Positions 6,007-62,114 of a stretch of 64,000 nt of DNA are shown one piece after another. The DNA is taken from NCBI GenBank assembly GCA_041649475.1, contig JBAZNA010000001.1, positions 124,267 through 188,266 on the forward strand, written 5' to 3'. The notes under the pieces are model-generated. The model made no database searches and had not been told where the DNA came from. It saw only the letters and a list, made by a program, of their open reading frames with translations. How positions within the stretch are numbered: position 1 is the stretch's first letter; each line of letters opens with the position of its first letter. The stretch comes from Patescibacteria group bacterium (GTDB lineage: Bacteria; Patescibacteriota; Patescibacteriia; Magasanikbacterales; GWA2-37-8). Made by a program: the position numbers and the translations under genes.

Positions 6007-6025
6007 ATGATTGTGATTAGTTGTC

Positions 6026-6277
6026 TTACGTAATACCATCGCCACAGTCGGCTGGGGGAACAAGCTGCCCATCGCGCATCACGAATCCTCGCGCGAGCAG
6101 CTCGTAGAGGATTGTACGAATCGCAGTGAGAAAACCGAGTAGCTGGTTCGCGGCCTCGTTTGATATGCCGCCAAGGGCTTCCGCAGATTGAGATGGTCGT
6201 GGTGAGCGTGTGTCATGAATCATAGACTCATCACGATACGCCATGTTCCTGGTCGGCGTAAGTAGTGAAATCGGCAA
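6026..6277 (-). CDS. Hypothetical small protein upstream of integrase (possible Xis/RDF-like; speculative)
   Basis: 83-aa ORF co-oriented with and immediately upstream of int; no recognisable motif. Confidence 0.25.
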   Translation of the reverse strand: MPISLLTPTRNMAYRDESMIHDTRSPRPSQSAEALGGISNEAANQLLGFLTAIRTILYELLARGFVMRDGQLVPPADCGDGIT

Positions 6278-6364
6278 TCCTGTGCGAGACCATCACCCCT
6301 TGCTGGTATCGGTCGGCTGTGGTACAATAAGGGCACTTGCTTATTAACTTAACAATGCACCGGT

Positions 6365-6688
6365 ATGGAATCAACCAAGTACAAGGTCGCCTCCCGAGCA
6401 CAGTACGGCATGCTCTATCTAGACCCTTCGCACGTGACCCAGGTACCAGACATTGAGTCCGGTCGAACGTATGAACTCGATCCGGTCCAGGTTGGCCGGG
6501 TATTTGGTCTTCTGAAGGAGGTTTTGGGTTTCAAGAGCAACAGGGAACTAGCACGCTACCTTCATCTTCAGGAAGGTCTCGTTGAGCGTGTGCTCGCCGC
6601 GGACAGGAGGAGCATCAGGAACGGCTTGCGCCTACCCCATGGCAAGGAAAAGAACAGCGAGCTGCCCTCTGCCTTGTCCTCCGGCTAA
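6365..6688 (+). CDS. Hypothetical protein with possible HTH
   Basis: 107 aa; helix-turn-helix-like segment SNRELARYLHLQEGLVERVL. Confidence 0.4.
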   Translation: MESTKYKVASRAQYGMLYLDPSHVTQVPDIESGRTYELDPVQVGRVFGLLKEVLGFKSNRELARYLHLQEGLVERVLAADRRSIRNGLRLPHGKEKNSELPSALSSG

Positions 6689-6699
6689 GCTCATGCAAT

Positions 6700-7149
6700 A
6701 TGGTTGACGATCCTAGATTCGAGAAACCGTCTGAACTGACCCCCAGGATCTTGTGGTTTCTCTACACGCTCCTGGACTTTGATCATGCCGGCGTTGACGC
6801 AGGAACTCGTTGCCGTCCACCGGCGGTCAAGGCAGCCCTGGACAAATGGCCGACCTACCGGTTCGACTGGTTCAAGCCTGAGCTGGTTGAGGTGCTTCGG
6901 CCAACATTCGAGCAGCTGGTCAAGCACCTGGGCGGCAAGTGGGCTATCACCAGAGGGATCCACCCGGAATTCAGGACTCCCTTCCTGGGACGCGGGCCGC
7001 TTCCCTTGAAACCAATCATACTCCACCGCATTAGCTGGATGATCAACAATCAGATGAGGAACTACAGGTTCGACTGGTCTATCGTTGACCGACTGTCTCA
7101 GCCACCGCTGACCGATGAGATGAAACGCGGGAGGGTACTTATCGATTGA
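6700..7149 (+). CDS. Hypothetical protein
   Basis: 149-aa ORF with protein-like composition, co-oriented with neighbours. Confidence 0.35.
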   Translation: MVDDPRFEKPSELTPRILWFLYTLLDFDHAGVDAGTRCRPPAVKAALDKWPTYRFDWFKPELVEVLRPTFEQLVKHLGGKWAITRGIHPEFRTPFLGRGPLPLKPIILHRISWMINNQMRNYRFDWSIVDRLSQPPLTDEMKRGRVLID

Positions 7150-7515
7150 CGAAGCAGTGACGGCGTCCCACTGCGGTACCGTACCCTGCACGTCATCGTC
7201 CTCTGGCCACAGTAACAAGAAGCCTCTCTGCGAATGCGGGTGAGGCTTCTTGTTATGCTTGTCGCTTCCATTTCGAATTCACTTATCCACAGCCAACGAC
7301 GGAGTACCGCCGTTTGTACTACTGTGCCACTCCGCTCACTTCAAGGTAAGCTGTATTATGATACCCGGATGTGGAGGATTGGTGTGAAACGAGACGGGTT
7401 GTTTTCATGCCACCCCCGCATCTATGAGTAGGAGGTTCCCCAGCACAGGGTCCAATCTAAACAAAGAAGGGAGGTGACATAGACACTCTTACAGATAATC
7501 AGATTACTGTCAAGA

Positions 7516-7896
7516 GTGGCTACCATGACAAACATATTTGCAACAAGAAGCCACGACCAGGAGAACTCCGATGAAATCGATACGAGCCCCCTGGGTTTTC
7601 ACATACGCAGACTGCGTCAATGGTACGGAGAGGGAGGCTTGTCCCAACGTGAGCTGGCCGACCTGGCCGATGTTTCTCCGCGCCAGCTGAGGATGTACGA
7701 AAGCTGTCGCATGCTCCCCGAGCCGATCAGCTTCCTGCTTTCTCTCGCCCTCGCCTTGAGGGTTCCCCTCGAGTCCCTCATCAACGAGACCGTCGTGAAC
7801 AGGCTCAGGGCCGAGATCGAGCGCCGTCGGCCGTTCGTCGAGCAGGGAGCGCGACAACGCGCCCTGGACCTGCCGAGTCGCGGGTATGGCGCGTAA
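7516..7896 (+). CDS. XRE-family HTH transcriptional regulator
   Basis: LSQRELADLADVSPRQLRMYESC helix-turn-helix. Confidence 0.6.
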   Translation: MATMTNIFATRSHDQENSDEIDTSPLGFHIRRLRQWYGEGGLSQRELADLADVSPRQLRMYESCRMLPEPISFLLSLALALRVPLESLINETVVNRLRAEIERRRPFVEQGARQRALDLPSRGYGA

Positions 7897-8401
7897 TCCC
7901 CGCCCTGCCAGACGGGTTCTCGTCGCCTGCTACCGCTTTCGTACCCTGGCGGTGGTCGAGCTCACCGAGGGCGAACGCCCCTTCGTGCTCAAGCACTGCA
8001 TCAGGGGGCTCCGGAGAAATCTCGCGAGAGCTGTGGCGTTCGTGCTGCGCGACGCCAACACATCCCGTCCGCGCCTCATCGTTGCCGACAACGCGCTGCT
8101 CGCTGACGAGCTGAGGAAGACCATCTGTGCGGTCCCGATCCAGACCATCACCATCGCGACCGCCAAGGAGGTTCTCCTCCCTGCGGAGCATCGCCCGAAT
8201 CACCACGACCTCTACCACCACCTGCTTCGACAACATCCGCATCTCCGGCGATACGTGACCGTGATCCCGTCCACGGGTCACATCGCCGAAAGCGAGAGGT
8301 GGCGAACCGTCGTCCTTCTCGCCGTCGCCCTCGGCCTCGCTGCCCAGCAGCAGGCCCGGGGCGGCAACCACCGGCGGCCTACCGGCCGACCGGTGGCGTA
8401 A
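7886..8401 (+). CDS. Hypothetical protein
   Basis: 171-aa ORF; the opposite-strand ORF 7805..8428 is low-complexity G/R/D-rich and was rejected. Confidence 0.3.
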   Translation: MARNPRPARRVLVACYRFRTLAVVELTEGERPFVLKHCIRGLRRNLARAVAFVLRDANTSRPRLIVADNALLADELRKTICAVPIQTITIATAKEVLLPAEHRPNHHDLYHHLLRQHPHLRRYVTVIPSTGHIAESERWRTVVLLAVALGLAAQQQARGGNHRRPTGRPVA

Positions 8402-8422
8402 TTCACCGTAAGTCATCGACCT

Positions 8423-8656
8423 ATGCACGTCTTCAACAACGACTCAACCCGAGTCACCAAAATCGAGAGGCTCCTTCGAGTCCTCGGAGATCACGACTGG
8501 CACTCCACCAGGGAGTTGGTTCGCCGAGTAGGCCATGCCTTCGGCGTGGCCAAGTTCAGGCTGGTCCACTCCTACCACTACGACATCGAGCGCCGGCACC
8601 ACCCCGCCCGGCGGTTTCAGTTCCAGTACAGGCTGCTCAAGGATCTCGACGAGTAG
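8423..8656 (+). CDS. Hypothetical small protein
   Basis: 77-aa ORF. Confidence 0.3.
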   Translation: MHVFNNDSTRVTKIERLLRVLGDHDWHSTRELVRRVGHAFGVAKFRLVHSYHYDIERRHHPARRFQFQYRLLKDLDE

Positions 8657-8695
8657 GAGGAGCTGGCCGTCCTCCACGCCATCCGCTGGTCGTTC

Positions 8696-9064
8696 TCAGC
8701 TTGAGACTCCCGAGGCTCCCGGCTTGCATCGCTTCAGCTTCAGTGCCAATCGTGCGACCGGCGTGCTCCGGTCGTCCTCCACGGCTACGGGAACGGCGGC
8801 ATTGCGCTCGAGCTCTTCGACAACCTGTCTCAGCGCAGCCACGATTGCTTCAGCTTGCGGCTCACCGCAGGTTCCGGGAAGCATCCGTGGCAGAATCAGG
8901 TCGACCGCAACGAGGACCTGATCTCGCGTCGCGTCCTCCGGCCCAGCGCTGACCTCCCGTAGCGCCTGGAGCAGCAGCTGTCTTGCCTGCTCCTCGGGGA
9001 GAAAGCATCGCAGCTCCTCGAGGCAGCGCAAGAACAGCAGACTCTCGGGCATCCCTGACCTCAC
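8696..9064 (-). CDS. Hypothetical helical protein
   Basis: 122-aa ORF, helical, regulator-like composition. Confidence 0.3.
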   Translation of the reverse strand: MRSGMPESLLFLRCLEELRCFLPEEQARQLLLQALREVSAGPEDATRDQVLVAVDLILPRMLPGTCGEPQAEAIVAALRQVVEELERNAAVPVAVEDDRSTPVARLALKLKRCKPGASGVSS

Positions 9065-9264
9065 CGCACATCGCCGCCCCCGGATCGATCATCTCCGATA
9101 CGCGGAGCGGACGTCTGTGGCCCTCGCTACAAGTCACCCGATTCGTCCCGTACCTCGACGGGCCCTGGCCTCGTGTGCAACTTCCTCGCCGTAACGGACG
9201 AGGAGGCGCACGACGAGCCAACGGGTCAACAACCGCTAACCTACGGGCTAGGAAAGCGACGATT

Positions 9265-9293
9265 GTCGGGGGCGGAGCCCCCGACGTTTTTCT
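9265..9293 (+). terminator. Rho-independent terminator-like hairpin (GTCGGGGGC-GGA-GCCCCCGAC, then a T-run)
   Basis: Perfect 9-bp GC stem, 3-nt loop, TTTTT tail. Confidence 0.55.
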
Positions 9294-9351
9294 GGCATCA
9301 AGGTGGGTCCCGGCGGTTCATCCGAGGGAGAACGCGCCACCCTTCCATGAG

Positions 9352-9408
9352 CCAGAAAAACGTCGGGTGCCGCTGCGCGCTCCGCGCTCCGCGGCCCCAC
9401 GACAATCG
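9352..9408 (-). repeat. Inverted, expanded copy of the 9251-9296 terminator-like element, giving convergent terminators
   Basis: ccagaaaaacgtcggg...ccccacgacaatcg is the reverse complement of cgattgtcggggg...cccccgacgtttttctgg with a GC-rich insert in the loop. Confidence 0.45.
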
Positions 9409-9535
9409 CGCAGCGGGTTACCCCGAGGAGGCGCCGGACACCGATTCCCGACTGCGTCGGGACCGGGTCCGTCACCTCCATCGAGGACCCAACGGCGAAC
9501 GGTCGAACGACCGACGCCAGGAACCAACAACCACT

Positions 9536-9640
9536 ATGCCAACGTCCCAAGGAGAGAAACAGATCGTGCTGACGTACGTCTACATCATCTGCATCTACCT
9601 CTTCTACGTCTGGTGCAGCGGCCCACGGCCCAGGCACTGA
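9536..9640 (+). CDS. Possible 34-aa hydrophobic peptide (type I toxin-like or leader peptide; speculative)
   Basis: MPTSQGEKQIVLTYVYIICIYLFYVWCSGPRPRH; a single TM helix; AT-richer codon usage than the surroundings; 76 bp upstream of the RepRelax gene. Confidence 0.2.
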   Translation: MPTSQGEKQIVLTYVYIICIYLFYVWCSGPRPRH

Positions 9641-9715
9641 GCTCGCCTCTCGCGAGCGTGCGGCTTCGAGCCGGCCGTCGACCCCCTGTCCCTCCATCAC
9701 CTAACTCCATCCACC

Positions 9716-10654
9716 ATGCGTCCATCACGCTTCATCCGTCCGGATCAGGCCACCGGTCTGGTTCTCCAGCCCCGCGACCGGGCAATCCTGGTGTCGGTGT
9801 TCAAACACCGATTCATGTGCAGCGACCATCTCCATCAGGTTCTGTGCCCGAATGTCTGCCTCCGGGTGCTCCAGGTCCGTCTCCGCAAGCTCTGGGAGCA
9901 CCAGATGCTCGACCGGCACTTCATCCCGTTCGTCCTCGACGGCGTGCACAAGCCGCCCAAGAGGGCGAGTCAGCCCATCTACAGCCTGGCGCCGGCCGGC
10001 GCCGCGGCTCTTGATGAGGAGTCGAGGAAGGAGAGCGAGCAGCTCGCGAAGCTGCGGCCAGCCGGGAGCGCGCCCGCGCTCCTCGAGCACAATCTGGTCG
10101 CCACCGACTTCCTGGTCAGCGTCCAGGCCGCGTGCCGCGGCCGCGCTGACGTTCAGGTCGAGTGCATCGAGGCCGAGACGTCGCTCTGGCGCAAGGTCTG
10201 GAACTGGCGACAGCGAACCGGCAGGGACACCGGCTTCATCATCCCTGACGCCGCAGTCGTTCTCCGACTTCCAGCCACTGGCGAGCGCCTGGCGTTCTAT
10301 CTCGAGGTCATCCGATCCGACATCAAGGGCGGCAACCGACGGCTGCTCGTCAAGCTCAAGCGCTACACCGAGCTGCTCAGGCAGGGGTTCTTTCGCCAGG
10401 CCTTCGGCCACGAGCGAGTTCGCGCGGTGCTGGTTGCGACCAGCACGGAGACCAGGGCCCAGAACCTCAACGCCCTGGCTCAAGAACTCGCTCACGGCCG
10501 CAGGTTGTTCTGGTTCGGGGCCTACGAGCACAAGGACAGCGACGGCCGCGGAGCCACCAACTTCACGGCCGGCACGACCCTCTCGCCGATGTGGAGAACG
10601 ATCGAGGGCGAACTAGTGTCGCTTGAGCAGGGCCGCGACAAACCGCCAGCGTGA
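9716..10654 (+). CDS. Replication-relaxation family protein (copy 1)
   Basis: N-terminal LQPRDRAILVSVFKHRFMCSDHLHQ matches the Replic_Relax signature (LTxRDxxIL..HR.LtxxQ). Confidence 0.7.
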   Translation: MRPSRFIRPDQATGLVLQPRDRAILVSVFKHRFMCSDHLHQVLCPNVCLRVLQVRLRKLWEHQMLDRHFIPFVLDGVHKPPKRASQPIYSLAPAGAAALDEESRKESEQLAKLRPAGSAPALLEHNLVATDFLVSVQAACRGRADVQVECIEAETSLWRKVWNWRQRTGRDTGFIIPDAAVVLRLPATGERLAFYLEVIRSDIKGGNRRLLVKLKRYTELLRQGFFRQAFGHERVRAVLVATSTETRAQNLNALAQELAHGRRLFWFGAYEHKDSDGRGATNFTAGTTLSPMWRTIEGELVSLEQGRDKPPA

Positions 10655-32751: not shown

Positions 32752-33963
32752 ATGGCGCGACCCAAGGAAGGACCACGCGTCCGAGGTCCGTACCGCTACG
32801 ACGGAGGACGACGATGGCGAGTCGACGTTTTCAAGGGCAGAGGCGAGGAGGATCCTGAGCTCCACTACTACGAGACGGAAAAGGAAGCTCGGCAGGTAGT
32901 CCAGTCGCTGAGAAGAGCGATGGGTCAGCAGCAGGACCGCACCATCGACGACGCCTTGAAGGAGTACGAGCGGCACATGCGGGAGAAGGGGAACAAGCCG
33001 AAGTCGATCACGGAGACGACCCGCAGACTCCGACTCTTCTTCCCGGACCTCGAGATGCCGCTCGCCGCGTTCAACTCCAGCCGCGCTCAGACGTACTACG
33101 ACGAGCTCTGCCAGCGACCAACGATGCAGCCGAAGCGGCAACAGGTCGACGGAGACGAGGTGGCGTCGCTGCGTGAACAGAAGCTCTCGTGGCGCGACAT
33201 CTGTGCCAAGCTCAAGTGCGGTCGGTCGGCTGCGATGCGCGCGCTAGAGCAGCGAGGCCAGCCCGAGCCCGAGTCCCGCAAGCTGTCAGTCGACAGCCAT
33301 CGCAACATGCTCGCCGAGGCCAAGTCGTTCACCCGCTGGTGCACGGAGGACAAGCGCTGGCTCAAGGCGAACCCCCTCGAGGCCGTCAAGGGCAAGGGCA
33401 AGCGCAAGCACGGCAAGCTGCAGCTGCGCATCGACGAGACGCGCAAGTGGGTCGCCAAGGCGCTCGAGTTGGCGGGGCAGGGCGAGGAGGGCGCGATCGC
33501 GGCCCTGCTCACGCTGTACCTCAACCTGCGCTGCAGCGAAGTGGTGACCCGAGTCGCGCGCGATGTCGACGACAACGGCCGGGTGCTCTGGGTGCCGGAC
33601 AGCAAGACCGAGAAGGGCAAGCGTACGCAGGAAGTCCCGCCGGAGTTGCGGCCGTTCCTCTTGCAGCTCACGTCGGGCAAGACCGCCGATGCCAAGCTGT
33701 TCGGCTGTGCCTCGCGCGACTGGCCGCGTCATTGGGTGCAGCGGATCTGCGCCTTGGCGGGAGTGCCCGTCGTCTGCGCTCACGGCATGCGCGGCACTCA
33801 CTCGAGCATCGCGCACGCCTTCGGCTTCACGAGCCGCGCCGTCGCCGACGCGATGGGGCATGAGTCCGAGAAGACCACGATCGAGAGCTACACGGACCCG
33901 TCGGTCGTGGCGAACGCGCAGCAGAAGCGCATGCTGCAGGTCCTGAATGGGGGCCGAGCTTGA
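32752..33963 (+). CDS. Tyrosine integrase (phage-integrase family)
   Basis: C-terminal catalytic block: RCSEV (R), HGMRGTHSS (H-x-x-R), GHESEKTTIESYT (Y). Confidence 0.8.
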   Translation: MARPKEGPRVRGPYRYDGGRRWRVDVFKGRGEEDPELHYYETEKEARQVVQSLRRAMGQQQDRTIDDALKEYERHMREKGNKPKSITETTRRLRLFFPDLEMPLAAFNSSRAQTYYDELCQRPTMQPKRQQVDGDEVASLREQKLSWRDICAKLKCGRSAAMRALEQRGQPEPESRKLSVDSHRNMLAEAKSFTRWCTEDKRWLKANPLEAVKGKGKRKHGKLQLRIDETRKWVAKALELAGQGEEGAIAALLTLYLNLRCSEVVTRVARDVDDNGRVLWVPDSKTEKGKRTQEVPPELRPFLLQLTSGKTADAKLFGCASRDWPRHWVQRICALAGVPVVCAHGMRGTHSSIAHAFGFTSRAVADAMGHESEKTTIESYTDPSVVANAQQKRMLQVLNGGRA

Positions 33964-34005
33964 CAACGAAACGTCTCGTTTCGTTGTCAGCGGGCCCGGA
34001 CAACA

Positions 34006-34039
34006 AGAAGGGGTTTCGCATCTCTGCGAAACCCCTTCT
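34006..34039. terminator. Perfect 15-bp palindromic hairpin (AGAAGGGGTTTCGCA-TCTC-TGCGAAACCCCTTCT), a bidirectional terminator-like structure
   Basis: Between the integrase stop and the tRNA-fragment 3' end. Confidence 0.5.
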
Positions 34040-34046
34040 GTTCCGG

Positions 34047-34080
34047 TGGAGCTGAACGGGATCGAACCGTCGGCCTCCTG
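34047..34080 (-). other. tRNA 3'-end fragment (T-arm plus acceptor, ...GACGGTTCGATCCCGTTCAGCTCCA), att-core-like and not a complete tRNA
   Basis: Canonical TTCGATC T-loop with 5-bp stem and 7-nt acceptor 3' strand; no matching 5' acceptor, D or anticodon arms upstream; flanked by repeated TTTCGTTGTCAGC motifs (33978 and 34130) and palindrome 33961-33989. Confidence 0.55.
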
Positions 34081-44125: not shown

Positions 44126-45346
44126 ATGAAAGAGTACCTCTTCTGTTCCCGAAACCTGTCCGACGTGATGGAGGACAGGCTCCAGAAGATGAAGCGCGAA
44201 CTGGAAGACTACGCGCCTGATCGGCTCCTCAACACCTCGACTGAGGATCTCGTGGAGTACTGTGGTAATGAGTACGGGATGGAGCCCGTGGTTTTGCACG
44301 AGGAACAAACCGAATGCGATCAGCATGAGCATCAATTGGACGTGAGCCAAGACCCTAACAGGTTCATTTTCGATTCGAGCCGTCCCTTCTATGTGCCGTC
44401 CTACCTTTTCGAATTCTTCGTGCCGTTCAGCGGTGATCCCGAGGTCCTCGAATCGCGGACGATGAGCTACGATATGAACCCGCCACGCGCCGAGATTCGT
44501 GAAGGCCAGCTGAGGTTCGCGGCTATCCTCGAGAAGCCAGACGGCGAGGCTGCCCGTGAGCAGTTCCACAATGAACTAAAGAAAGTGCGAACCTACCTGT
44601 CGCGTGGTGAGGCGACCATCAGCGATTACAACAAGCGGGTGAGGACGACATCTCAGGCGCAGATTGAGGCACGCAAGCAGCGGCTGCTGGCGGGAAGAAA
44701 CGTAGCCGCGTCCCTCGGATACCCCATGCGGGTCCGAGCCGATGCTCCCCTCACGTACGCTGCCCCTGCCATTAGAAGGAAGATGGTTGCTCCACCGCGG
44801 GCTAGTTCGGGAGCGTTCTCTCCTGAACCCGTGATGCTAATTGAAGACTACGAGCATATCCTGGGCATCATCGAGACTATGGTGCTTATGTTCGAGCGCA
44901 GTCCGGCGACCTTCAAGAACATGAAGGAGGAGGATCTGCGAAATCACATCCTGGTGCAGCTCAACGGCCACTATGAGGGCGCGGCGACTGGTGAGACGTT
45001 TAATGGTGGCGGGAAGACGGACATCCTCGTCCGAGTCGATAACAGGAATGTCTTCATCGGCGAGTGTAAGTTCTGGGCGGGACCGGTCACGCTCGCTGAG
45101 ACTATTGACCAGGTTTTCGGGTATGCGTCCTGGAGAGACACCAAGATCGCGATCATCTTGTTCAACCGCAACAAGGACACGTCGGCAGTGCTGGCGAAGA
45201 TCCCCGACGCACTCAGAAGCCACGCGAATTTCAAACGGCTCGAGAAGAGCGCCGCAGAGACGCGCTTCCGAGCGGTCTTGCATCAGCCGGGAGACGTAAA
45301 TCGCGAGGTAAGCTTGACCGTGCTGGTGTTCGATGTGCCTGCTTGA
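44126..45346 (+). CDS. Hypothetical protein with C-terminal PD-(D/E)xK nuclease-like motif
   Basis: GGGKTDILVRVDNRNVFIGECKFW (D...ECK); N-terminal region unrecognised. Confidence 0.5.
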   Translation: MKEYLFCSRNLSDVMEDRLQKMKRELEDYAPDRLLNTSTEDLVEYCGNEYGMEPVVLHEEQTECDQHEHQLDVSQDPNRFIFDSSRPFYVPSYLFEFFVPFSGDPEVLESRTMSYDMNPPRAEIREGQLRFAAILEKPDGEAAREQFHNELKKVRTYLSRGEATISDYNKRVRTTSQAQIEARKQRLLAGRNVAASLGYPMRVRADAPLTYAAPAIRRKMVAPPRASSGAFSPEPVMLIEDYEHILGIIETMVLMFERSPATFKNMKEEDLRNHILVQLNGHYEGAATGETFNGGGKTDILVRVDNRNVFIGECKFWAGPVTLAETIDQVFGYASWRDTKIAIILFNRNKDTSAVLAKIPDALRSHANFKRLEKSAAETRFRAVLHQPGDVNREVSLTVLVFDVPA

Positions 45347-45380: not shown

Positions 45381-45488
45381 GGGTTCTAAGGCAGTCCCGA
45401 CATGCCCGCATCGTGAGACACGCACAACACAAGCACTCGTCGGAGCGCAACACCAAGATCACCCCGGCACAGGGTGATCTTTCGTTTG
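45381..45488 (+). ncRNA. Candidate structured RNA / attenuator element, copy A (conserved boxes plus covarying hairpin plus U-tract)
   Basis: GGGTTCTAA...GCCCGCATCGTGAGACA...GATCACCC-N7-GGGTGATC-TTTCGTTTG; paralogous to 55024..55134 with compensatory stem changes. Confidence 0.4.
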
Positions 45489-45941
45489 CTCGAGCGCGAT
45501 GTTCCGAGGATACCGGCGAGCGCCACCGCAAAGTGTCGCCCTCCGGGCCCCCAGGGTGGACGGGACTCGAACCTGCCGACCAATCGACAAAAACACGTGT
45601 AGTGGCCGCGCCTTAGCTCCAAATTCGAGTCTCGCGCCCCTGTCTTTCCTGTCCAGCAGTTACACGCAGTTGCGACCAAGTGCGGCGGAGCTTGGGCAGC
45701 AGTTGGGCAGTGCTCTTTCCGCTGGGCGGCAGGTTGTTACGTCAGCCTGCGCCTTTCCCAATGGGGACTTGCGTCGGGAGCCGCCGTTCCCCGATAGCGC
45801 CCAGCCTTCATCCTGGCGGCCCAGGGATTCGCACACTCCCCTTGCAGTGGCGCCGCGAGATGCGTATCTTGGTGGAGTCAGGATTGGAGTCAGGATCCCG
45901 TTCCGCTACCGGCTGGCGCTCTGCGCCCAACGGAGGTCCTG

Positions 45942-47786: not shown

Positions 47787-48509
47787 CCTGGCTCGACCTG
47801 GCCTGGCATGGCCGCAGCGGGCCTGGTCGCGCTGACGATGCGGTCCCGGTCGACATCGAGTTGGCGGGATGATACTTGCTGCGGTCGCCCTGAGCGGCTG
47901 CGGCCCACTGCGCGGTGCCCTCGGCGCACAGGAGTTCCCGCTCATGCTCGACCGCGACGCGGACGTACGTCTTGACACGCGGTCTTGTCGGCCACGACCA
48001 GCGCATCGAGCCGGGCGGCGATCAGTGGCGAGTACGGTCTGGGACGCGGGCTAGTCAGCGCGTACGTACCTGCGCCGACAGCGCGACCGACGGCGTCGAC
48101 CCGTTCCAGCCTCGCGCTGTGTGGAAGCTTGCCCAAAACCACCCGCTAGTGTAAATGAGTGTCTCCATGCGCAGGTTCTACCCGCTCAACAGACCAGCCC
48201 CGCAGCATCCGGCTCTCGCTGTGCCGTCCGGCGCTGCATGGTCACGTGCGATACGGTCGAGGCTCTGCCGCTGATCGCGCCCGAGGAGAAGCATGATCCT
48301 CCCGCCAGAACCCCGAGTGGGTGATTTGTCTCATCGGTTGAGACCGCTTTCTCATGCGAAAAGCTGGGTCACGAGCTGATCTTCGAGCCTGCTTTCTCGG
48401 CGAAGGGAGTCTTGCGAAGGAATCAATCATGCGGGTCGTGCACGTTCTAGTCCGCGTTGTGCGCCGCCATATCGAGGTTTCAGCAGACCCTGCGGAGCAA
48501 TTCTAGGCA

Positions 48510-49460
48510 ATGGCTCGGCACCCCTCTACGTCGGCAATGGCAAGCCGCCCAGCTCCACAGGAGCCCGTGCGACTCCTCTCCGTTCCAACCGTTTCAGAGC
48601 CAGCGGTTCAGCATTCTCCTCCCGTCCACGGATTGCATTCCTGGGAGGGCCACACCTCCGCGGGCATCCGCTGGCGGGTACACAGAGGAGATGCGCGACA
48701 AGTCATGGCGACCATACCAGAAAAAAGCTTCAACTGCGTCGTCACTTCTCCGCCCTACTACTGGCAACGCGACTACAACGTTCCAGGCCAGCTTGGGCTG
48801 GAACCGACCCCTGACGCGTACGTTGCCGCGATTGCGGACGCCATGGACGAGGTCCGTCGCCTCCTTCGCAAGGATGGCCTTCTCTTCCTCAACCTTGGCG
48901 ACACGTACTACTCCAAGAAAGGCAAGCCGAAAGGACGCGACAAGAAGAATTGGGCTCGCCGCTTTGGTCGTCTCAGAGCAGTCGACACGAGCGGGTTGGG
49001 CTTACCCAGAAAAACAGCCATTGGCATTCCGTGGCAGGTCGCGCTATGCATGATTTCTCGGGGGTGGACACTCCGCTCTCCAATTATCTGGAAGCGCGAG
49101 CACGCTCAACCAGAACCCACTGCGCGCGACCGTCCCTGGCGGTCATATGAGATGATGTTCATGTTTAGCAGGAATCCCGTATACTACTTCTCTCGCGCTG
49201 CTCTTCAGGGCGAAGAGGATATCTGGACTGTACACTCGCAATCAAAGCATACGGACAAGCTCCGTTCGGCCTATTTTCCCGAACAGCTCGTACGAAGGTG
49301 TCTCGAGATAGGGTGTCCCCCCCATGGTGAGGTGCTAGACCCTTTCGCAGGGAGCGGCACAGTGCTCCGTGCAGCGGTCGCAGCCGGTCGGCCAGCGACT
49401 GGGATCGACCTCAGTGATTCCTACTGCAAATTCATGGCGGGCGATCTGAAAAAACTGTGA
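48510..49460 (+). CDS. DNA methyltransferase (N6-adenine/N4-cytosine, beta-class), orphan or R-M remnant
   Basis: Motif IV TSPPYY precedes motif I VLDPFAGSGTV (N6_N4_Mtase family); start uncertain (48510 or later ATG). Confidence 0.8.
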   Translation: MARHPSTSAMASRPAPQEPVRLLSVPTVSEPAVQHSPPVHGLHSWEGHTSAGIRWRVHRGDARQVMATIPEKSFNCVVTSPPYYWQRDYNVPGQLGLEPTPDAYVAAIADAMDEVRRLLRKDGLLFLNLGDTYYSKKGKPKGRDKKNWARRFGRLRAVDTSGLGLPRKTAIGIPWQVALCMISRGWTLRSPIIWKREHAQPEPTARDRPWRSYEMMFMFSRNPVYYFSRAALQGEEDIWTVHSQSKHTDKLRSAYFPEQLVRRCLEIGCPPHGEVLDPFAGSGTVLRAAVAAGRPATGIDLSDSYCKFMAGDLKKL

Positions 49461-52307: not shown

Positions 52308-52937
52308 TCAGCTACACCCGCAGCTCCCTTGGGGGAACCTCACTTGATGACGTCGCCCTCCGAGGGTTGCGCAAGCGCGGTCATCCTCGGCGTTGCGAAG
52401 CGCGGGCAGCACACTCAGCGGCAACCACCTGCGGATGGCCCCTTGCCCTCCAGTGTTGTCGGGGTTATCCCCACCGTAGATGAACCACTCGTAGTCCGCA
52501 TCCCGTACGGGAGGTCCTGCTAGTTCTGGCTTCGGCCGGAAGAGATAGGTCAGCTTGGCCACCATTGGCCTCGACGCCACCAGGCATCCGCCGAGCAGGG
52601 CAACATGCGCTTCGTTCTGCTCAAAGTCGCTCAGGTATACGCAGATGCTGATGATCGCATCATTGCCCGGCGTCAATTGCATTCTCCACGATGGGGAGGT
52701 GTAATTGTCGCCGGGCACATCATCCTCCAAGGGACGAGCCAGACCATCCCAGAAGTCCTCAATGCGAAGCTGTCGCTCTGAGTCGGGAAGCGTCGGATCC
52801 AGGATCAAGCGCAAACCGAAAAGCAGGTTCGATTTGCCGACCTTGTTTGCCCCGACTACGACGATATTCTCGCCGAGATCGCATGCCGCGTCTGAGAAGT
52901 TGCGGAAATTGTGTGGTTCAATTCTGCTTAGCCTCAT
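52308..52937 (-). pseudogene. AAA ATPase N-terminal region (OLD/Gabija GajA-like AAA_15), apparently truncated at 209 aa
   Basis: MRLSRIEPHNFRNF...VVVGANKVGKSNLLFGLRLIL; no downstream continuation ORF, so a fragment or degraded gene. Confidence 0.4.
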
Positions 52938-52996: not shown

Positions 52997-53026
52997 TTGA
53001 CCGGACACTCTCTGTCGTTGTATGAT
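52997..53026 (+). promoter_or_regulatory. Sigma-70-like promoter TTGACC-N18-TATGAT; start codon about 10 nt downstream (leaderless)
   Basis: Same architecture as the 60861..60890 promoter for the paralogous gene. Confidence 0.4.
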
Positions 53027-53035
53027 TACCAATGT

Positions 53036-53452
53036 ATGAGTAGTTCACCATCTCAGTCTTCACTGCATCCGCGAATCGCAATAACGAAACAACGTCTCTG
53101 GTATCTCTACTGCTTTGCGAGTCTCAACAAGTCAGATATCGAGCGCCTCACCAAGTGGTCTCGAGGAATGATCGATTACCGACTTCACCAGTGGAACCTC
53201 ACCCTGCGTTCCTCCATCTCGCTCGCAACGTGGAGGTGGATGGAATGGCGACTCGCCCGTCGCCTCAACATCCCGCGTCAACCCGACACCGTTGGAAGTT
53301 TGGAGGCCTGGCGAGCCCGCTTCTGCGACCAGTTGCGCGGTCGTCTTCTGGACAAGCCGATCAACTGGGCCGAGATTGACCGTGATCCAGGGTTGCGGGA
53401 GATTGAGGCCCATCTGTCAGAGAACCAATCTCAGACAGCAGAAGGGTTCTAA
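53036..53452 (+). CDS. Hypothetical Trp-rich helical protein, paralog of 60901..61287
   Basis: ITKQRLWYLYCFASLNKSDIERLTKW... conserved with the second copy. Confidence 0.5.
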   Translation: MSSSPSQSSLHPRIAITKQRLWYLYCFASLNKSDIERLTKWSRGMIDYRLHQWNLTLRSSISLATWRWMEWRLARRLNIPRQPDTVGSLEAWRARFCDQLRGRLLDKPINWAEIDRDPGLREIEAHLSENQSQTAEGF

Positions 53453-53797
53453 GATCCTCCTTTCTTGTCCACACCGCAACGAGTAGGCAAGGCCTCGGCA
53501 TTTGCCTCAACTCAGCCAATTCATCCGAGCAAAAAGGGCCTTTGTCACCCATCGCTGGGGATTGCCTGTCAAACCGATTTGGCTACATTGAGCCAGATTC
53601 ATGTTCAATTCCACCTGGCTATCTCGGATTAGAGCGAGGGTGGCGGCGCGCGCGCATTCCCGGTTGCCAGCGGCCTTGTCGGTGATCGCGTCTTTGTGCT
53701 ACACTTATATAAGTCGGGGAGCGATCCTCCGCACGAGGACAGCCATGGCACCAGTTGCCGAGCGCGACAACTGTGGGTTCAACAGGGGAGGACTGCG

Positions 53798-54582: not shown

Positions 54583-54987
54583 ATGCCTTTCGCAATATAC
54601 ATCGAGAGAAGGGATTACGACATTGTCATCGGATGGCGGGACAAGCAAATGGCCACCGTCCGTTTTGTGTTTGAAGGCTGGAAGGACAGGACGGCGGCAG
54701 ACAGGTTTCACGAAAGCATCAGCTACCTGGACGCTGAAACCGCTGCCAAGAGAAACCCGGGGCCAGATGGCATGTATTGCATCAGGTGCCGCGGCAAGGG
54801 CGAACCGACAAGAGACGCTGTTCTAGAGGTGACCTACGACAACGCGCTATGTGACCCCGAGAAGCTGGACATGTTTTTCGCGACGAGTGGGGTCGCTGTA
54901 CACCATGCCGATCCTTTCTTCAAACCTGTGAAGAGCCTGTGGCAGGCATTGGCCCAGCGTCGGATTCCCAAACCGAAAGCTAATTAG
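54583..54987 (+). CDS. Hypothetical protein
   Basis: 134-aa ORF. Confidence 0.4.
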   Translation: MPFAIYIERRDYDIVIGWRDKQMATVRFVFEGWKDRTAADRFHESISYLDAETAAKRNPGPDGMYCIRCRGKGEPTRDAVLEVTYDNALCDPEKLDMFFATSGVAVHHADPFFKPVKSLWQALAQRRIPKPKAN

Positions 54988-55023
54988 GTTCCGTCTCATC
55001 CCCAGAACTGACATCCGTCGCCT

Positions 55024-55134
55024 GGGTTCTAACATAGTCCATCCACGCCCGCATCGTGAGACAACGTCCAACCGCTCGTCACCGCGCCGCAATGCAAGGA
55101 CCACCGCAGCTGCAGAGCGGTGGTCTTTCGTTTG
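55024..55134 (+). ncRNA. Candidate structured RNA / attenuator element, copy B
   Basis: GGGTTCTAA...GCCCGCATCGTGAGACA...GACCACCGC-N9-GCGGTGGTC-TTTCGTTTG; 36 nt after the upstream stop, 66 nt before the PP2C start. Confidence 0.4.
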
Positions 55135-55200
55135 TCCAGGCGCGCCATTCAGATGCCGCGCCGGACCTCGCGGTCGGATCGCGTAGGCGTGTCGGGCGAG

Positions 55201-56427
55201 ATGGCTTGCAGCGGCGCGTCCAGGCGCCTACCATCGCCCCCAATGGCGCCTGTCACAGATCTTGAGGATCTCGTCCGAAGATGGGTTGCGGGGTCGGGAA
55301 ACGGTGCGCAGCCCGCAGCCGATCAATCCTCGTTCTCCCTCGGCTCTCAAGCAGGCCTTGTCCGGAAGGAGAACCAAGATCGTGTTGCCCATGCGCGCTT
55401 CTACTTTGGTGGTGAGCCCGCCTCGCTCTCCATCGTGTGTGATGGGATCGGCGGCATGGCCGACGGTGCGCGATGTGCCGATTTGGCAATAGGGGCGTTC
55501 CTTTGCAGCGTTGTCGCTTCGTCGCCCGCCCGTGGCCCAGAGGCGCTGCTAGCCCACGCCGCATTCGTCGCCAACTCCCGTGTCTTCGACCTCGTCGGTG
55601 GCCGAGGCGGCACTACCTTGGCGTCAGTGCTCTGCTGGGCGGGACAGGAGTTCGCGTGCCACGTCGGCGACAGTCGCGTGTATGCAACCGCCCCTGACGG
55701 CACCCTTCCTCAAGTCGGAGTCGACGACACCTTCCAGGCTCGTCTTCAGGCGATGGCGGCGCCCGCGGCGCACCAGCCCCTCGACTCCGAGCGCCTGGTC
55801 CAGTATGTCGGCATGGGCTCAGACATGGAGCCACATGTGAAGAAGATCGAGGTGCCCGCCGACGGCAGGATTCTACTCACCTCTGATGGCGTACACGGCC
55901 CCGCAGGATCTGTCCTGCCGACTCTGGTTCGCCATGCATCGACGCCGCGCAGGCTCGTCGAACGCGTGCTCGCGCTTACCTTGTGGCTCGGTGGTCTCGA
56001 CAATGCAACGGCCCTCTGCATCTTCCGAGCGTCAACTGGTGGGGAGGCCGAGGCAGGGATCAGAGATCAGCTGCTTTGTGAAGTATGGAGTCCGGCCGGA
56101 AGATTGGTCGTTCCGCTACTCGGTCGAGATTCTCTGACTCAGACGAAGCGAGCGGTGCCGATGCCAGAGCCACGCCGCTCCTCTGATCCCCACACCCACG
56201 GACGTCGATCGAAGGGGAAGCCCCGGGGCGGGACGCGAGAGCGCGCGAAAGCTCCCCCGCAGACCCCGCCCGCGAGCCAGCTCTCCATCGAGGTGGTGGT
56301 CGGCGACACGCCCCAGACCGCAGCGAGTAGTAGCCCACCGTCAGTTCAGGACACGACCCGCGACAGCGCGAGTAATCCTCACTCGACCTCCGGCGATGCA
56401 GACAGTGCGAAGCCGCACGGCAAGTGA
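55201..56427 (+). CDS. PP2C-family Ser/Thr protein phosphatase with low-complexity C-terminal tail
   Basis: VCDGIGGMADG, HVGDSRVY, LLTSDGV metal-binding motifs. Confidence 0.8.
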   Translation: MACSGASRRLPSPPMAPVTDLEDLVRRWVAGSGNGAQPAADQSSFSLGSQAGLVRKENQDRVAHARFYFGGEPASLSIVCDGIGGMADGARCADLAIGAFLCSVVASSPARGPEALLAHAAFVANSRVFDLVGGRGGTTLASVLCWAGQEFACHVGDSRVYATAPDGTLPQVGVDDTFQARLQAMAAPAAHQPLDSERLVQYVGMGSDMEPHVKKIEVPADGRILLTSDGVHGPAGSVLPTLVRHASTPRRLVERVLALTLWLGGLDNATALCIFRASTGGEAEAGIRDQLLCEVWSPAGRLVVPLLGRDSLTQTKRAVPMPEPRRSSDPHTHGRRSKGKPRGGTRERAKAPPQTPPASQLSIEVVVGDTPQTAASSSPPSVQDTTRDSASNPHSTSGDADSAKPHGK

Positions 56428-56448
56428 GGCGATCAGGGGGCAGCTGCG

Positions 56449-57540
56449 ATGATCTACGGTGGCCGATACGAGAGCATTGGTACCTCTGGAAGCTCGGGGG
56501 GTACGGGCACGGTCGTGATCTGCGAGGATCCGAACCTCAAGCGCAAGGTCGTGATCAAGTTTCTGCAGGCAGTCAGCCAGAAGCGGCGCATCTACGACGA
56601 GATTCGCGCTCTTCAGCGCGTTCGGTCGAAACACGTCGTTCAAATCTACGACATCGTCGTGCTGCAGCCGGGCAACCAACTCGGCATCGTGCAAGAGTAC
56701 CTTCCTGGCGAGGATCTTCTTGCTGTGGCGGCGTCGAAACCCAATCTCGACAAGTACCTCCTGCTCCTGTACCAAGTCGCCTGCGGGCTCGCCGACATCC
56801 ATGATCTCGCCATCATCCATCGCGACGTGAAGCCCAACAACATCAAGCTTGATGAGGAGGGCTTGGCGAGGATCTTCGATTTCGACTTGGCCAGAACCGG
56901 CGGCGGAGACGCCAAGACGGTCGGTTTCATCGGGACCCCTGGGTTTGCCGCTCCGGAACTCTACCCCGGGTATGGTGGAGGAGGTACGGTGGCCTTCACG
57001 GAGGCCGTCGATGTTTACGCATTTGGCGCCACTGCTCTCTACTGCGCTGAGAACGACCTTCCGGCCGAGCTTGCTCGACATCCAGACCCTCCCGACCCTG
57101 ACGCGTGGGTGGCTCGTCAGGGGTTCTCTGGTGTGCGAGTGAAGCTCCCGGCACAGGTCGCGGACGTGTTGAACGCCTGCATTGCGCGCGACATTCGCTA
57201 TCGTCCCAAGTTGGCTCAGGTAAGGACTGTGTTGGGGGCGTATCTTGTTCGAGGGAAACACCGAGCCCTTCTTGTTCACCGTGGAAAGACATTCGTTTGC
57301 GACGAGAAGCAAGCTGCCGTTCGCCTCGCGTCAACAGGTGTTGGAGAGATCCACGTTGGCTACGACGGGCTGGGCTTCGGCGTTACATTCGTTCGCGGCG
57401 ATGTGTGGATCAATAACCAAGTGGCGAGCACAGGCGCGACAATCCCGGGTTCCTGTGTGATCACCATCGGGGCGCCCCGCCTGGGGCCTGCGCGTGACTT
57501 TATCACGCTCGACACATCTCATCCGGAGGTCGTCCTGTGA
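56449..57540 (+). CDS. Hanks-type Ser/Thr protein kinase
   Basis: VIKF (VAIK-like), IIHRDVKPNNI, DFDLAR, GTPGFAAPE. Confidence 0.8.
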   Translation: MIYGGRYESIGTSGSSGGTGTVVICEDPNLKRKVVIKFLQAVSQKRRIYDEIRALQRVRSKHVVQIYDIVVLQPGNQLGIVQEYLPGEDLLAVAASKPNLDKYLLLLYQVACGLADIHDLAIIHRDVKPNNIKLDEEGLARIFDFDLARTGGGDAKTVGFIGTPGFAAPELYPGYGGGGTVAFTEAVDVYAFGATALYCAENDLPAELARHPDPPDPDAWVARQGFSGVRVKLPAQVADVLNACIARDIRYRPKLAQVRTVLGAYLVRGKHRALLVHRGKTFVCDEKQAAVRLASTGVGEIHVGYDGLGFGVTFVRGDVWINNQVASTGATIPGSCVITIGAPRLGPARDFITLDTSHPEVVL

Positions 57541-58637
57541 CTACGACGATCCACAAAGCCGGAGATACGGTGGCCGGGCGCTACGACGTGAAGGCGTACG
57601 TTGACGCTGGGGGTATGCAGGAGGTCTACCGAGCAGTAGATGGCGTCCTGAAGCGTGAGGTCGCCCTCAAGGTCCCGAAGAATGCCTCTGCCGAGCGGCG
57701 TTTCGCGCGAAGTGCGATCTTGAGCGCCAGGATTAACCACCCAAACGTCGCCAAGACTCTCGACTTCGTCGAGGACAACAACAGGCCGTACCTGATCGAG
57801 GAGTTCATCAAGGGTGAGGATCTTCAGCGCGTGCGGCGCCGCCTAGCCATCATGGATCCCTATCTGGCGGCTCATCTGCTTCACCACATGGCGCGCGGAG
57901 TAGCAGCCTCGCACCATGCGGGCGTCGTGCACCGGGATCTGAAGCCGAGCAACATCATGGTCGCGCCCGACCTGTCGTTCGCCTTCGTGAAGATCACGGA
58001 CTTCGGCATCGCCAAGATGGCGCAAGAGGAGATCGCTGCTGCAGCTGGTGCCGGGGAACGCGAGATGACCAGCAGCCAAACGGCTGTCGGTGCGCTGCCG
58101 TACATGGCTCCAGAGATGATTCTCACACCGCGAAGCACCGACACGCCCTCGGATGTCTGGGCACTAGCGTCGATGGCCTACGAGTTCGTCAGCGGGAAGA
58201 AGCCATTTGGTGCAGGCTGGGCCGCTGCGGCGAACATCATCAACGGCACGTTCCCCGGACTGCCACCAGAACTGAACAAGACGCAATTCAAGGGCCTCGG
58301 CGAGGAGGTGTTCGCGCTTGTCCAGCGATGTTGGGCTCGGGATCCGGCTGAACGTCCCACTGCCGACGAACTCGTGAAGCTGTGCGGTCAGCTATGCTAC
58401 CCACCTTGCAGTCGAAGCCAAGGCGTCGTCGCGCGTGTCAGTTACGACGCGTATGGCTTCATCGACTCAGACTCGGGTAGCGTGTTCTTCCACATGGACA
58501 GCGTGTACGGCCCTCGACCGGCCGCGGGCGACACCGTCTGCTTCGCAGCATTCGATGGTCACCCGGCGCCGCGGGCGCACCCTGTCGTCACGATGCGGAG
58601 CGATCCCGCTGTCGCCACTTCATCGGTGGCGCCGTAG
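57537..58637 (+). CDS. Hanks-type Ser/Thr protein kinase (second, tandem)
   Basis: VALKV, VVHRDLKPSNI, DFGIAK, YMAPE. Confidence 0.8.
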   Translation: MTTTIHKAGDTVAGRYDVKAYVDAGGMQEVYRAVDGVLKREVALKVPKNASAERRFARSAILSARINHPNVAKTLDFVEDNNRPYLIEEFIKGEDLQRVRRRLAIMDPYLAAHLLHHMARGVAASHHAGVVHRDLKPSNIMVAPDLSFAFVKITDFGIAKMAQEEIAAAAGAGEREMTSSQTAVGALPYMAPEMILTPRSTDTPSDVWALASMAYEFVSGKKPFGAGWAAAANIINGTFPGLPPELNKTQFKGLGEEVFALVQRCWARDPAERPTADELVKLCGQLCYPPCSRSQGVVARVSYDAYGFIDSDSGSVFFHMDSVYGPRPAAGDTVCFAAFDGHPAPRAHPVVTMRSDPAVATSSVAP

Positions 58638-59031: not shown

Positions 59032-60357
59032 TTACTGACTTTCCTCGTCCGCTGCCGACACCGGGGGTAGCTGCAGCGGGGGTGGGTTGATCCAGACGGC
59101 CGTGGGCGGCTGTGCTGGCACGGGCGGGCGACGTACGAAGCGCTCCGGGTGCTCTTGCCAGGCCGCCGAGAGTACCAGCTGCCGTTGCGCGAGCACGTGC
59201 GGCCCGCGGCCGTAGTGCACCATCTCGGGCGTCAGCAGGCCGAGGCCCGTGTGGTGGTGTTCGGTGTTGTACCAGGCGAAGAAGGGGCCGCAGAAGGCGC
59301 GTGCGTCCTCGACGCAGCCGAAGCGGTCGGGAAACTCCGGCCGGTACTTGAGCGTCTTGAATTGGCTCTCGGAGAAGGGGTTGTCGTTGGAGACGTGCGG
59401 GCGGCTGTGCGTCTTGGTGACGCCGAGGTCCGCCAGCAGCAAGGCGACTGGTCGGCTCGTCATCGACGTGCCGCGGTCGGCGTGCACCGTCACCATCCCT
59501 GGCCTAATCGCCTGCTTCTCGCAGGTCTCGTAGATGAGCTGCTGTGCGAGCTGCGCGGTCTCACGCTGGGCCACCATCCACCCGACGACGTAGCGGCTGA
59601 AGATGTCGAGGATCACGTACAGGTGGAAGTAGGTCCACTTCACCGGCCCGAGTAGTCGGCTGATGTCCCACGACCACACCTGGTTGGGCCGGGTCGCGAG
59701 GAGCTCGGGCTTGGCGTAGGTCGGATGGCGGAGCTGGTCGCGGCGCTCGCGCAGCTCATTGTGTGCGCGGAGCAGGCGGTACATGGTCCGCACTGAGCAC
59801 AGGTACCGTCCCTCGTCGAGGAGCGTGGCGTAGATTTCGCGCGGCGCCTGGTCGACGAAGCGCGGGCTGTGCAGCTCGGCGAGCACCGCCTCCCGCTCCG
59901 CGGGCTGCAGCGCCCGCGCCGGCGTAGCGCGCGGCGCGGTGCGCGTGGGCGGGGGCGCGGCGGCGGTCCGCCGGCGCCGGTACAGGGTCGCGCGCGGGAT
60001 CCCCAGCGCCGCACAGGCGGGCGCTGACCCGATCTCGCGCGCCAGCGCGAAAGCGGTCGGCATCAGTCGTTCTCGTCGTCGCTGGGGCGGGTCAGCGGGA
60101 TCCCCAGCAACTCCGAGGCTTTTTTTTGGACCGCGATGACGATCTTCGCCCGGGTCAGCTGCTTCTGCAGCCGTGCCTTCTCGCGCTCCAGCTGCGCCAC
60201 TCGTCGCGCCAGCGGATTGCGCGTCGGTTTGGGACCGCGGCGCGGCCCCAGCCCGCCCAGCACGCCCAGGCGGTTCTGCATCCGCCAATCCGCCAGGTGC
60301 GAGGAGTACAAGCCGTGGCGCCGCAACAGCGCCCCCACCTCGCCGGGCGTGGTGCAC
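59032..60357 (-). CDS. IS3-family transposase OrfB (DDE integrase core); expressed as OrfAB by -1 frameshift
   Basis: DDE core (WSWDISRL...TVHADRGTSMTS...NDNPFSESQF); -1 frame relative to orfA at the A AAA AAA G heptamer (plus-strand T-run 60120-60127). Confidence 0.75.
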   Translation of the reverse strand: MHHARRGGGAVAAPRLVLLAPGGLADAEPPGRAGRAGAAPRSQTDAQSAGATSGAAGAREGTAAEAADPGEDRHRGPKKSLGVAGDPADPPQRRRERLMPTAFALAREIGSAPACAALGIPRATLYRRRRTAAAPPPTRTAPRATPARALQPAEREAVLAELHSPRFVDQAPREIYATLLDEGRYLCSVRTMYRLLRAHNELRERRDQLRHPTYAKPELLATRPNQVWSWDISRLLGPVKWTYFHLYVILDIFSRYVVGWMVAQRETAQLAQQLIYETCEKQAIRPGMVTVHADRGTSMTSRPVALLLADLGVTKTHSRPHVSNDNPFSESQFKTLKYRPEFPDRFGCVEDARAFCGPFFAWYNTEHHHTGLGLLTPEMVHYGRGPHVLAQRQLVLSAAWQEHPERFVRRPPVPAQPPTAVWINPPPLQLPPVSAADEESQ

Positions 60358-61956: not shown

Positions 61957-62028
61957 GCCCCCGTCGTTCAATGGATAGGACACTAGCCTGCGAAGCTGGA
62001 AATCTAGGTTCGACTCCTAGCGGGAGCA
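61957..62028 (+). tRNA. tRNA-Arg-like (anticodon GCG), with a C3-A70 acceptor mismatch and a 4-nt variable loop
   Basis: D-arm GTTC/AATGGATA/GGAC, anticodon loop CTGCGAA, T-arm CTAGG-TTCGACT-CCTAG, acceptor GCCCCCG/CGGGAGC; unusual anticodon and mismatch reduce confidence. Confidence 0.5.
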
Positions 62029-62114
62029 CAAGTAAAAATTGATTTTTAAAAGCCGAGGTGATAAAATTGCTTCGGCTTTTTGATAACACAAACAAACGCA
62101 CGAGGAGGCGAACA

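Follow-up and report, generated by a model that had tools for sequence, protein, structure and literature searches.

The 64,000-nt window analyzed here (positions 124,267 to 188,266 of contig JBAZNA010000001.1, from a metagenome-assembled genome labelled Patescibacteria by NCBI) contains two homologous non-coding units of about 130 bases, copy A (45381-45507) and copy B (55024-55153), both on the plus strand and each ending in a predicted terminator. The copies are conserved block by block, begin shortly after stop codons, and carry terminator hairpins whose arms have changed in a compensatory way. The explanation we favor, and to which the sequence leads us to give about an even chance, is that they are paralogous modules of 3' untranslated region (3' UTR) and intrinsic terminator located at junctions between gene cassettes, with a 5' block that has a second role, probably at the level of RNA.

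Each copy opens with a 40-nt block (45381-45420 in A, 55024-55063 in B; 33 of the 40 positions are the same) that has the layout GGGTTCTAA-N14-GCCCGCATCGTGAGACA. The spacing between box 1 (GGGTTCTAA, 45381-45389 and 55024-55032) and box 2 (GCCCGCATCGTGAGACA, 45404-45420 and 55047-55063) is exactly 14 nt in both copies, and AGTCC is common to both spacers (45393-45397 and 55036-55040). A variable center follows (45421-45454 and 55064-55096), in which two further shared boxes can be read by eye: CTCGTC (45436-45441 and 55075-55080) and GC(G/C)GCAA, represented by GCGCAA in A (45445-45450) and by GCCGCAA in B (55086-55092). The putative intrinsic terminator occupies 45455-45488 in copy A, with a 10-bp stem (AAGATCACCC/GGGTGATCTT), the loop CGGCACA and a hairpin energy of -14.3 kcal/mol, and 55097-55134 in copy B, with an 11-bp stem (AGGACCACCGC/GCGGTGGTCTT), the loop AGCTGCAGA and a hairpin energy of -18.7 kcal/mol. 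Both hairpins run into the same tail, TCTTTCGTTTG (45478-45488 and 55124-55134), which has 7 U in 11 nt. A generic terminator scan recognized only the inner part of the copy B hairpin. A first-pass annotation of this stretch had recognized the two copies with their shared boxes and tail, as well as the intrinsic terminator at the 3' end, and we find these features as it described them. However, residual similarity, seen in the repeat family and by pairwise blastn, continues for about 20 nt beyond the tail (45489-45507 and 55135-55153), and the unit is therefore better drawn as 45381-45507 versus 55024-55153. The annotation was also right about the position of the copies relative to the genes ahead of them: copy A starts 34 nt past the stop codon (TGA, ending at 45346) of a PDC-S54 gene (44126-45346), and copy B starts 36 nt past the stop codon (TAG, ending at 54987) of an orphan gene for a 134-aa protein (54583-54987).

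Similarity between the copies amounts to 68.7% over 134 columns, with an E-value of 5e-13 in pairwise blastn and of 5e-6 against the whole window. The identities (73 of 118 aligned columns) are clustered in runs of 17, 11 and 9. When the vector of matches and mismatches is shuffled, the run of 17 has P = 0.0056 and all three runs together have P = 1.5e-5. Clustering of this kind is beyond chance and beyond the even decay of a duplication, which indicates that particular boxes have been preferentially kept. Box 2 has only these 2 matches in the window, even when 3 mismatches are allowed (expected 0.37).

The first-pass annotation had pointed out that the hairpin arms differ between the copies yet stay complementary, and took this compensatory change as the signature of a functional RNA structure. 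The observation is correct, and the interpretation holds for the terminator stem but not for the rest of the element. Helix 1 of the RNAalifold prediction is the terminator stem, in which 2 of the 10 shared pairs have changed on both sides and 1 shows a G-U change; helix 2, the outer GCAA/UUGC, has 1 G-U change; and helix 3, GGGU/GCCC, is invariant between A and B. The hairpin arms as a whole show 2 double (compensatory) and 2 one-sided G-U changes. RNAfold predicts an additional helix in both copies, between UCGUGAG of box 2 and CUCGUCG of the center, again with invariant bases. Because their bases do not differ between the copies, the helices outside the terminator stem carry no covariation signal, and folding of the whole element is not better than that of dinucleotide shuffles (z = -1.70 for A and -0.78 for B). 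We read the compensatory changes as proof of selection on the terminator hairpin and of nothing more. The functional strand is the plus strand; the U-rich tail is perfectly conserved there, and the matching stretch on the minus strand is less so.

In its sequence features and position the element qualifies as an intrinsic terminator and not as an integron attC site, a miniature inverted-repeat transposable element (MITE), a repetitive extragenic palindrome (REP), an attenuator or an Rfam family. Rfam 15 returned only two tRNAs when the whole window was scanned at gathering thresholds, a scan of the 11-kb region gave nothing at E <= 10 that overlaps the elements, and a scan of the elements alone gave only 10-13-bit matches to eukaryotic and viral RNA families; the Rfam search that the first-pass annotation had recommended thus yields no family, even at E = 10 on the elements alone. 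The preQ1-I aptamer, to which GGGUUCUA...CCC bears some likeness, was dropped as a candidate, as there is no match to the covariance model and no A-rich tail. By eye the copies have neither terminal inverted repeats nor target-site duplications, and only 2 full copies are present in about 74 kb. The 5' ends, TTCTAAC (B)/TTCTAAG (A), and the 3' ends, GTTTGTC/GTTTGCT, are complementary in AAC/GTT only, where attC sites require R'' (RYYYAAC) to pair with R' (GTTRRRY); no IntI was identified, and by eye the element has no dif-type symmetry and box 1 no T-arm-like fold. No antiterminator helix is common to A and B: folds of the nascent RNA without the 3' arm differ between the copies, and no helix that both have captures the 5' arm.

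A short in-frame open reading frame (ORF) had been named as the alternative should covariation be lacking, and the reason for considering a protein-coding gene is that one plus-strand frame lacks stops across most of both copies. That frame contains no ATG, GTG or TTG, however, and in A it is closed by a TAG at 45376, three bases upstream of the element. The other plus-strand frames carry stops, one of which is the TAA of box 1. Mismatches between A and B show no periodicity of 3, the CTCGTC box lies in one frame in A and in another in B, and the minus-strand ORFs over the copies are in different frames and have flat GC content across codon positions. We regard a small protein gene as refuted by the sequence, with a likelihood close to nil.

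Whether the element is the tail of the operon ahead of it or the head of the one behind it can be judged from its surroundings. From copy A to the next called gene there are 453 nt, and the 147-codon ORF within this gap is uncalled and not coding-like (GC 0.63/0.64/0.66 by codon position). Copy B does lie upstream of the PP2C-kinase operon, as the annotation had stated. The gene callers start PP2C at 55132 or 55153, but residue 72 of this long form aligns with residue 30 of the nearest homolog (44% identity), and the start is therefore probably the ATG at 55243, 108 nt past the tail of copy B. With that start, a promoter-like TTGCAG-17-TACCAT read by eye at 55206-55234 would give a nearly leaderless PP2C mRNA. 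In the one related PP2C-kinase-kinase operon for which the DNA was read, locus L048, the PP2C gene and the AAA_23 gene ahead of it overlap by 4 nt, and there is no leader. Stop-codon proximity, the 453-nt gap, the probable PP2C start, the leaderless related operon and the lack of a shared antiterminator favor the end of an upstream operon over the leader of a downstream one, and they weaken the suggestion of a riboswitch- or attenuator-type leader made in the first-pass annotation. As a separate observation, the L048 operon (2266-10239) encodes, in order, a Cap4-nuclease, a 182-aa protein, AAA_23, PP2C, two kinases and a 236-aa protein, with PP2C and the kinases in distal position. It is a candidate multi-gene defense system of which the island described below seems to keep only a part. 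Here PP2C and its two Ser/Thr kinases (55243-58637) stand alone.

The genomic setting is consistent with a location of both copies at cassette junctions. About 57 kb between tRNA-Ala (4336-4409) and tRNA-Arg (61957-62029) form a mobile/defense island of 56-67% GC, flanked by core sequence of 44-56% GC that includes Band7, Wzy_C and malic enzyme on the side of tRNA-Ala and PurA on that of tRNA-Arg. Among the island genes are those for a serine recombinase, a TrwB/HerA-like ATPase, a primase, a SIR2-ORC/CDC6-like protein and two tyrosine integrases, together with an IS3-family element. Called genes between 37.7 and 58.6 kb are nearly all on the plus strand. The order begins with an AAA_13 ATPase (minus strand), hsdM-hsdS-hsdR-ygjP, PDC-S54 (PADLOC E 1.8e-150; annotated by NCBI as a hypothetical protein) and copy A. 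It continues with a 290-aa protein, a 307-aa methyltransferase-like protein, a type II methyltransferase, PtuA and PtuB (Septu), then a truncated GajA (minus strand), the orphan genes for 249-aa and 134-aa proteins, copy B, PP2C and the two Ser/Thr kinases. The genes flanking A are not paralogs of those flanking B, and no PP2C remnant is present downstream of copy A. GC content at third codon positions (GC3) is 0.61-0.69 in the nine genes between the copies, as against 0.69-0.91 in the six to the left and 0.69-0.74 in the three to the right. A fragment resembling the 3' half of a tRNA, GGTTCGAGTCCCGTCCACC (45552-45600, minus strand, with GGTTCGAGTCC at 45563-45573), lies 64 nt past copy A. A different fragment of this kind, GGTTCGATCCCGTTCAGCTCCACC (about 33990-34080, minus strand), adjoins the integrase gene at 32752-33963 and is followed by a perfect terminator hairpin. 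Neither fragment is called by ARAGORN or Rfam, and both are likely att-site scars of nested integrations. The GC3 contrast and the tRNA scar near A fit a position of the two copies at seams between separately acquired cassettes. There is no recombinase between A and B, and a Logan contig of the same sample, covering about 34.06-59.4 kb in window coordinates, runs unbroken through both.

Further copies were sought with a covariance model built from A and B and scanned with filters off over the window plus 10 kb more of the 963-kb contig, about 74 kb in all. The true copies score 130.5 and 132.9 bits and the best other site 13.5 bits, so that there is no third full copy in this part of the genome. 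That other site (53442-53497, E 0.03-0.08) coincides with a possible third 5' block without terminator at 53444-53483 on the plus strand, which has an exact GGGTTCTAA and the 14-nt spacing. Of the 24 further positions that A and B have in common it matches 12 (background P = 0.01), and its E-values in pairwise blastn, 0.007 with A and 0.05 with B, are marginal. It may be a decayed copy of the block. The TAA in its box 1 terminates an uncalled 138-aa ORF (53036-53452, plus strand) that has no Pfam match. Of the sigma-70-like sites in the region the best, TTGACC-18-TATGAT (52997-53026), lies directly ahead of this ORF, so that its mRNA would be nearly leaderless.

Beyond this genome the element has no recognizable relatives in the collections searched. 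The two-box pattern gave 5 matches in Proteus and Moellerella among the GTDB representative genomes, and the one inspected (L001) is low in GC, coding-like and unlike the element. The exact 17-mer of box 2 gave 36 matches in JGI metagenomes, none of them with box 1. Against the covariance model, 45 other loci taken from the JGI, Proteus and viral matches reached at most 22 bits, compared with about 130 for the true copies. Three patterns run on IMG/VR produced 1 chance match and 2 empty scans, and blastn against plasmids and phages produced nothing beyond chance matches of 20-40 nt. One of the metagenomic matches, on an unrelated contig (locus L042, 8219-8601), has an exact box 2 located 12 nt ahead of the gene for a class A RNase P RNA, where TGAGACAAT would be an extended -10; a few intergenic matches are to be expected among 36, and we judge this one coincidental. 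The promoter lead that it offered was dropped, as the box 1 spacing differs and the extended -10 is kept in neither A nor B. Neighboring genes led to no closely related island in which non-coding DNA could be compared: the nearest relatives of PDC-S54 and PP2C share 50% and 44% identity with them, and for the 134-aa protein none was found. The element is judged here from two and a half copies, and it appears to be lineage-specific.

Under the explanation we favor, each copy would form the 3' end of the transcript of the operon that precedes it in the same direction. Copy A would end hsdM-hsdS-hsdR-ygjP-PDC-S54, and copy B would end the orphan 249-aa/134-aa gene pair. The GC hairpin and U-rich tail would act as a Rho-independent terminator and would insulate the next cassette, that is, the 290-aa/methyltransferase/Septu genes after A and PP2C with its two kinases after B. 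The 5' block and central boxes would then lie in the terminated 3' UTR and would be kept by selection for a second function, probably in RNA, the likeliest being recognition by a protein or RNase or service as the single-stranded seed of a small RNA (sRNA) of about 110 nt derived from the 3' UTR. As paralogs, the copies would mark the cassette junctions of a composite mobile island and would have been spread by the recombination that assembled it. We infer both termination itself and an action of the 5' block in RNA rather than in DNA.

Several observations weigh against this account. Termination is predicted from sequence, and the U-tract is broken by other bases (UCUUUCGUUUG). With only two full copies, covariation can be read in the terminator stem only. 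The account leaves unexplained why a 40-nt block should stand ahead of the terminators of two operons that are not related, and the fixed 14-nt spacing of the boxes suits a DNA-binding protein as well as a function in RNA. Copy B carries a sigma-70-like CTGACA-16-TAACAT (55008-55035) that overlaps box 1 and fits an independent transcript. Finally, no relative of the element turned up in any of the exact-pattern or BLAST searches made.

The promoter-like site in copy B bears on the possibility that the copies are free-standing sRNA genes, in which the 40-nt block would be promoter, 5' seed or both, and from which trans-acting RNAs of 70-110 nt with a shared seed would be made. Paralogous sRNA pairs such as OmrA/OmrB show the same pattern of conservation, in which the 5' segment is identical, the middle varies and the terminator at the 3' end is conserved. 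To the eye, CATCGT in box 2 moreover retains the two bases, A and T, that count most in a -10 hexamer. But the -10 of copy B has TAAGGC as its counterpart in A, and a search by eye for sigma-70, extracytoplasmic function (ECF), sigma-54 and FliA motifs found none common to the copies at legal spacing on either strand. The preceding stop codon is only 34-36 nt away, nothing in the window complements box 2 over more than 11 nt (58588-58598, within a kinase gene), which is about the chance level, and no homologs were found. The sRNA gene suggested by the first-pass annotation survives as an unlikely alternative, one that lacks a promoter common to both copies. We are somewhat more doubtful of a cis-acting leader of the downstream operon, be it an attenuator, a riboswitch or a nut-like antitermination site ahead of the terminator, that would allow conditional read-through into the next cassette. 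Its attractions are that the PP2C-kinase operon follows directly on B and another cassette follows A, and that the terminator forms the 3' end of a conserved RNA segment. In the nut-like version, box 1 would be boxA and the small CA(U/C)G-CCCGCAU-CGUG hairpin boxB: GGGUUCUAA resembles boxA sequences (that of lambda is CGCUCUUAA), the 4-bp hairpin keeps its pairing by eye across the U/C difference, and the arrangement is shared with lambda nutR-tR1, in which a stop codon is followed by the nut site and then by a terminator. Against any leader stand the points already given on its distance from the next gene after A, the probable PP2C start behind its own promoter-like site, the leaderless L048 operon, the missing shared antiterminator, the unexceptional folding and the absence of an Rfam match. 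For the nut-like version, the boxA likeness spans 9 nt and needs one mismatch and one deletion, the boxB-like stem is just 4 bp long, and Pfam, NCBIfam and PADLOC identified no island gene resembling N, Q, RfaH or LoaP.

About as improbable as sRNA genes is an explanation at the level of DNA, according to which the copies are direct repeats left by or used for the insertion of the 9.6-kb segment, or are binding sites of a recombinase or regulator. One version has Campbell-type or site-specific recombination between related junctions, with the identical 17-mer as crossover core. Direct repeats do flank a nine-gene block of distinct GC3, one tRNA scar is 64 nt from A and another near 34.05 kb, the island has two tyrosine integrases, a serine recombinase and an IS3-family transposase, and the spacing of the boxes is fixed. 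Yet the block contains no recombinase, and similarity extends to both sides of the 17-mer, which would not be the case in a simple attL/attR pair. Terminal inverted repeats, target duplications and attC-type R''/R' complementarity are all lacking, the compensatory stem changes and strand-specific U-tail point to RNA, and the Logan contig is unbroken through both copies. A dedicated junction module read by an island-encoded factor, acting either as an attC-like core for the swapping of multi-gene cassettes or as a nut-like site of conditional read-through, is a longer shot than any of the three preceding explanations. If it were true, the chain of defense operons would be wired by a repeated non-coding part of an undescribed kind.

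The element can be compared with several known systems. Like intrinsic terminators in general, the element has a GC-rich stem of 10-11 bp, a loop of 7-9 nt, a U-rich tail, a position tens of nucleotides past a stop on the coding strand, and, further upstream, a run rich in A with which the tail could pair. Unlike it, the terminators of unrelated operons are not homologous and share no 40-nt upstream block, and the U-tract of the element, although broken by C and G, is conserved base for base. By analogy, the functionally closest systems seem to be 3'-UTR-derived sRNAs that share the terminator of their mRNA and paralogous sRNA pairs. Hfq/ProQ-type RNAs such as OmrA/OmrB resemble the element as units of about 110 nt that end in an mRNA's terminator and have the same 5'/middle/3' pattern, but the element has no predicted target and no family members were found outside the island; we know of no Hfq/ProQ-type chaperone in this organism. 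Lambda nutR-tR1 and HK022 put, compared by sequence only, are likewise paralogous short sites in one mobile element, past a stop and just before a terminator. They differ in that the boxB-like hairpin here has 4 bp, no partner that recruits N, Q or Nus was identified, and the two copies stand in series in one gene array rather than one per promoter. Copy B, and copy B only, recalls the RNAs of type III toxin-antitoxin systems (ToxI; AvcI, PMC10511110) in being a short non-coding RNA that ends in a terminator directly upstream of a defense effector, but the element has no tandem repeats, precedes two unrelated cassettes and is absent from the L048 operon. With attC, REP and MITE elements it shares a length of 110-130 nt, a position just past a stop, conserved end boxes, a variable middle and a hairpin. 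Unlike in those elements, its end boxes are not complementary (AAC/GTT in copy B only), terminal inverted repeats, target-site duplications and IntI are missing, the cassettes are multi-gene, and there are only 2-3 copies.

Some features of the island stand apart from the element. A 209-aa ORF (52308-52937, minus strand) matches the first 165 of 596 positions of the GajA model (E 5.6e-54) and is a truncated remnant of a Gabija ATPase with no GajB nearby. Inside it, at 52460-52498 on the minus strand, is a hit to the DUF3800-XI RNA motif that is most likely due to chance (16.2 bits versus a gathering threshold of 37.8, E 7.4). A stretch of about 0.7-0.9 kb with 64.6% GC and no called gene (47787-48704) precedes the methyltransferase-PtuA-PtuB (Septu) genes. 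Some PtuAB systems are associated with retrons; no reverse transcriptase was seen, and for structured RNA the stretch was covered by the Rfam scan. ARAGORN calls an 83-nt tRNA-Trp (60212-60294, plus strand) in the region of the IS3-family transposase, which has no Rfam tRNA support and is probably a false positive. A mobile/defense island this large and this foreign in composition is unusual in a genome of the size typical for the candidate phyla radiation (CPR). Logan contigs of the core end inside both tRNA genes (window positions 4372 and 61971), and the join of island and core may be chimeric, yet a 101-kb ENA contig spans the right-hand junction.

What the element means for this organism depends on its 5' block. 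On present evidence it is no more than a lineage-specific curiosity. If it only terminates transcription, it would be a routine insulator between horizontally acquired defense operons, useful mainly for marking operon boundaries in the island. The candidate functions of the 5' block are seeding of an sRNA, binding of a protein, and service as a junction at which cassettes are exchanged or read-through becomes conditional. If the block has such a function of its own, the element would be a part of no known class, RNA or DNA, connecting unrelated systems, namely type I restriction-modification/PDC-S54, Septu and PP2C-kinase, in a mobile island of a CPR genome, a setting in which non-coding regulation is almost unexplored.

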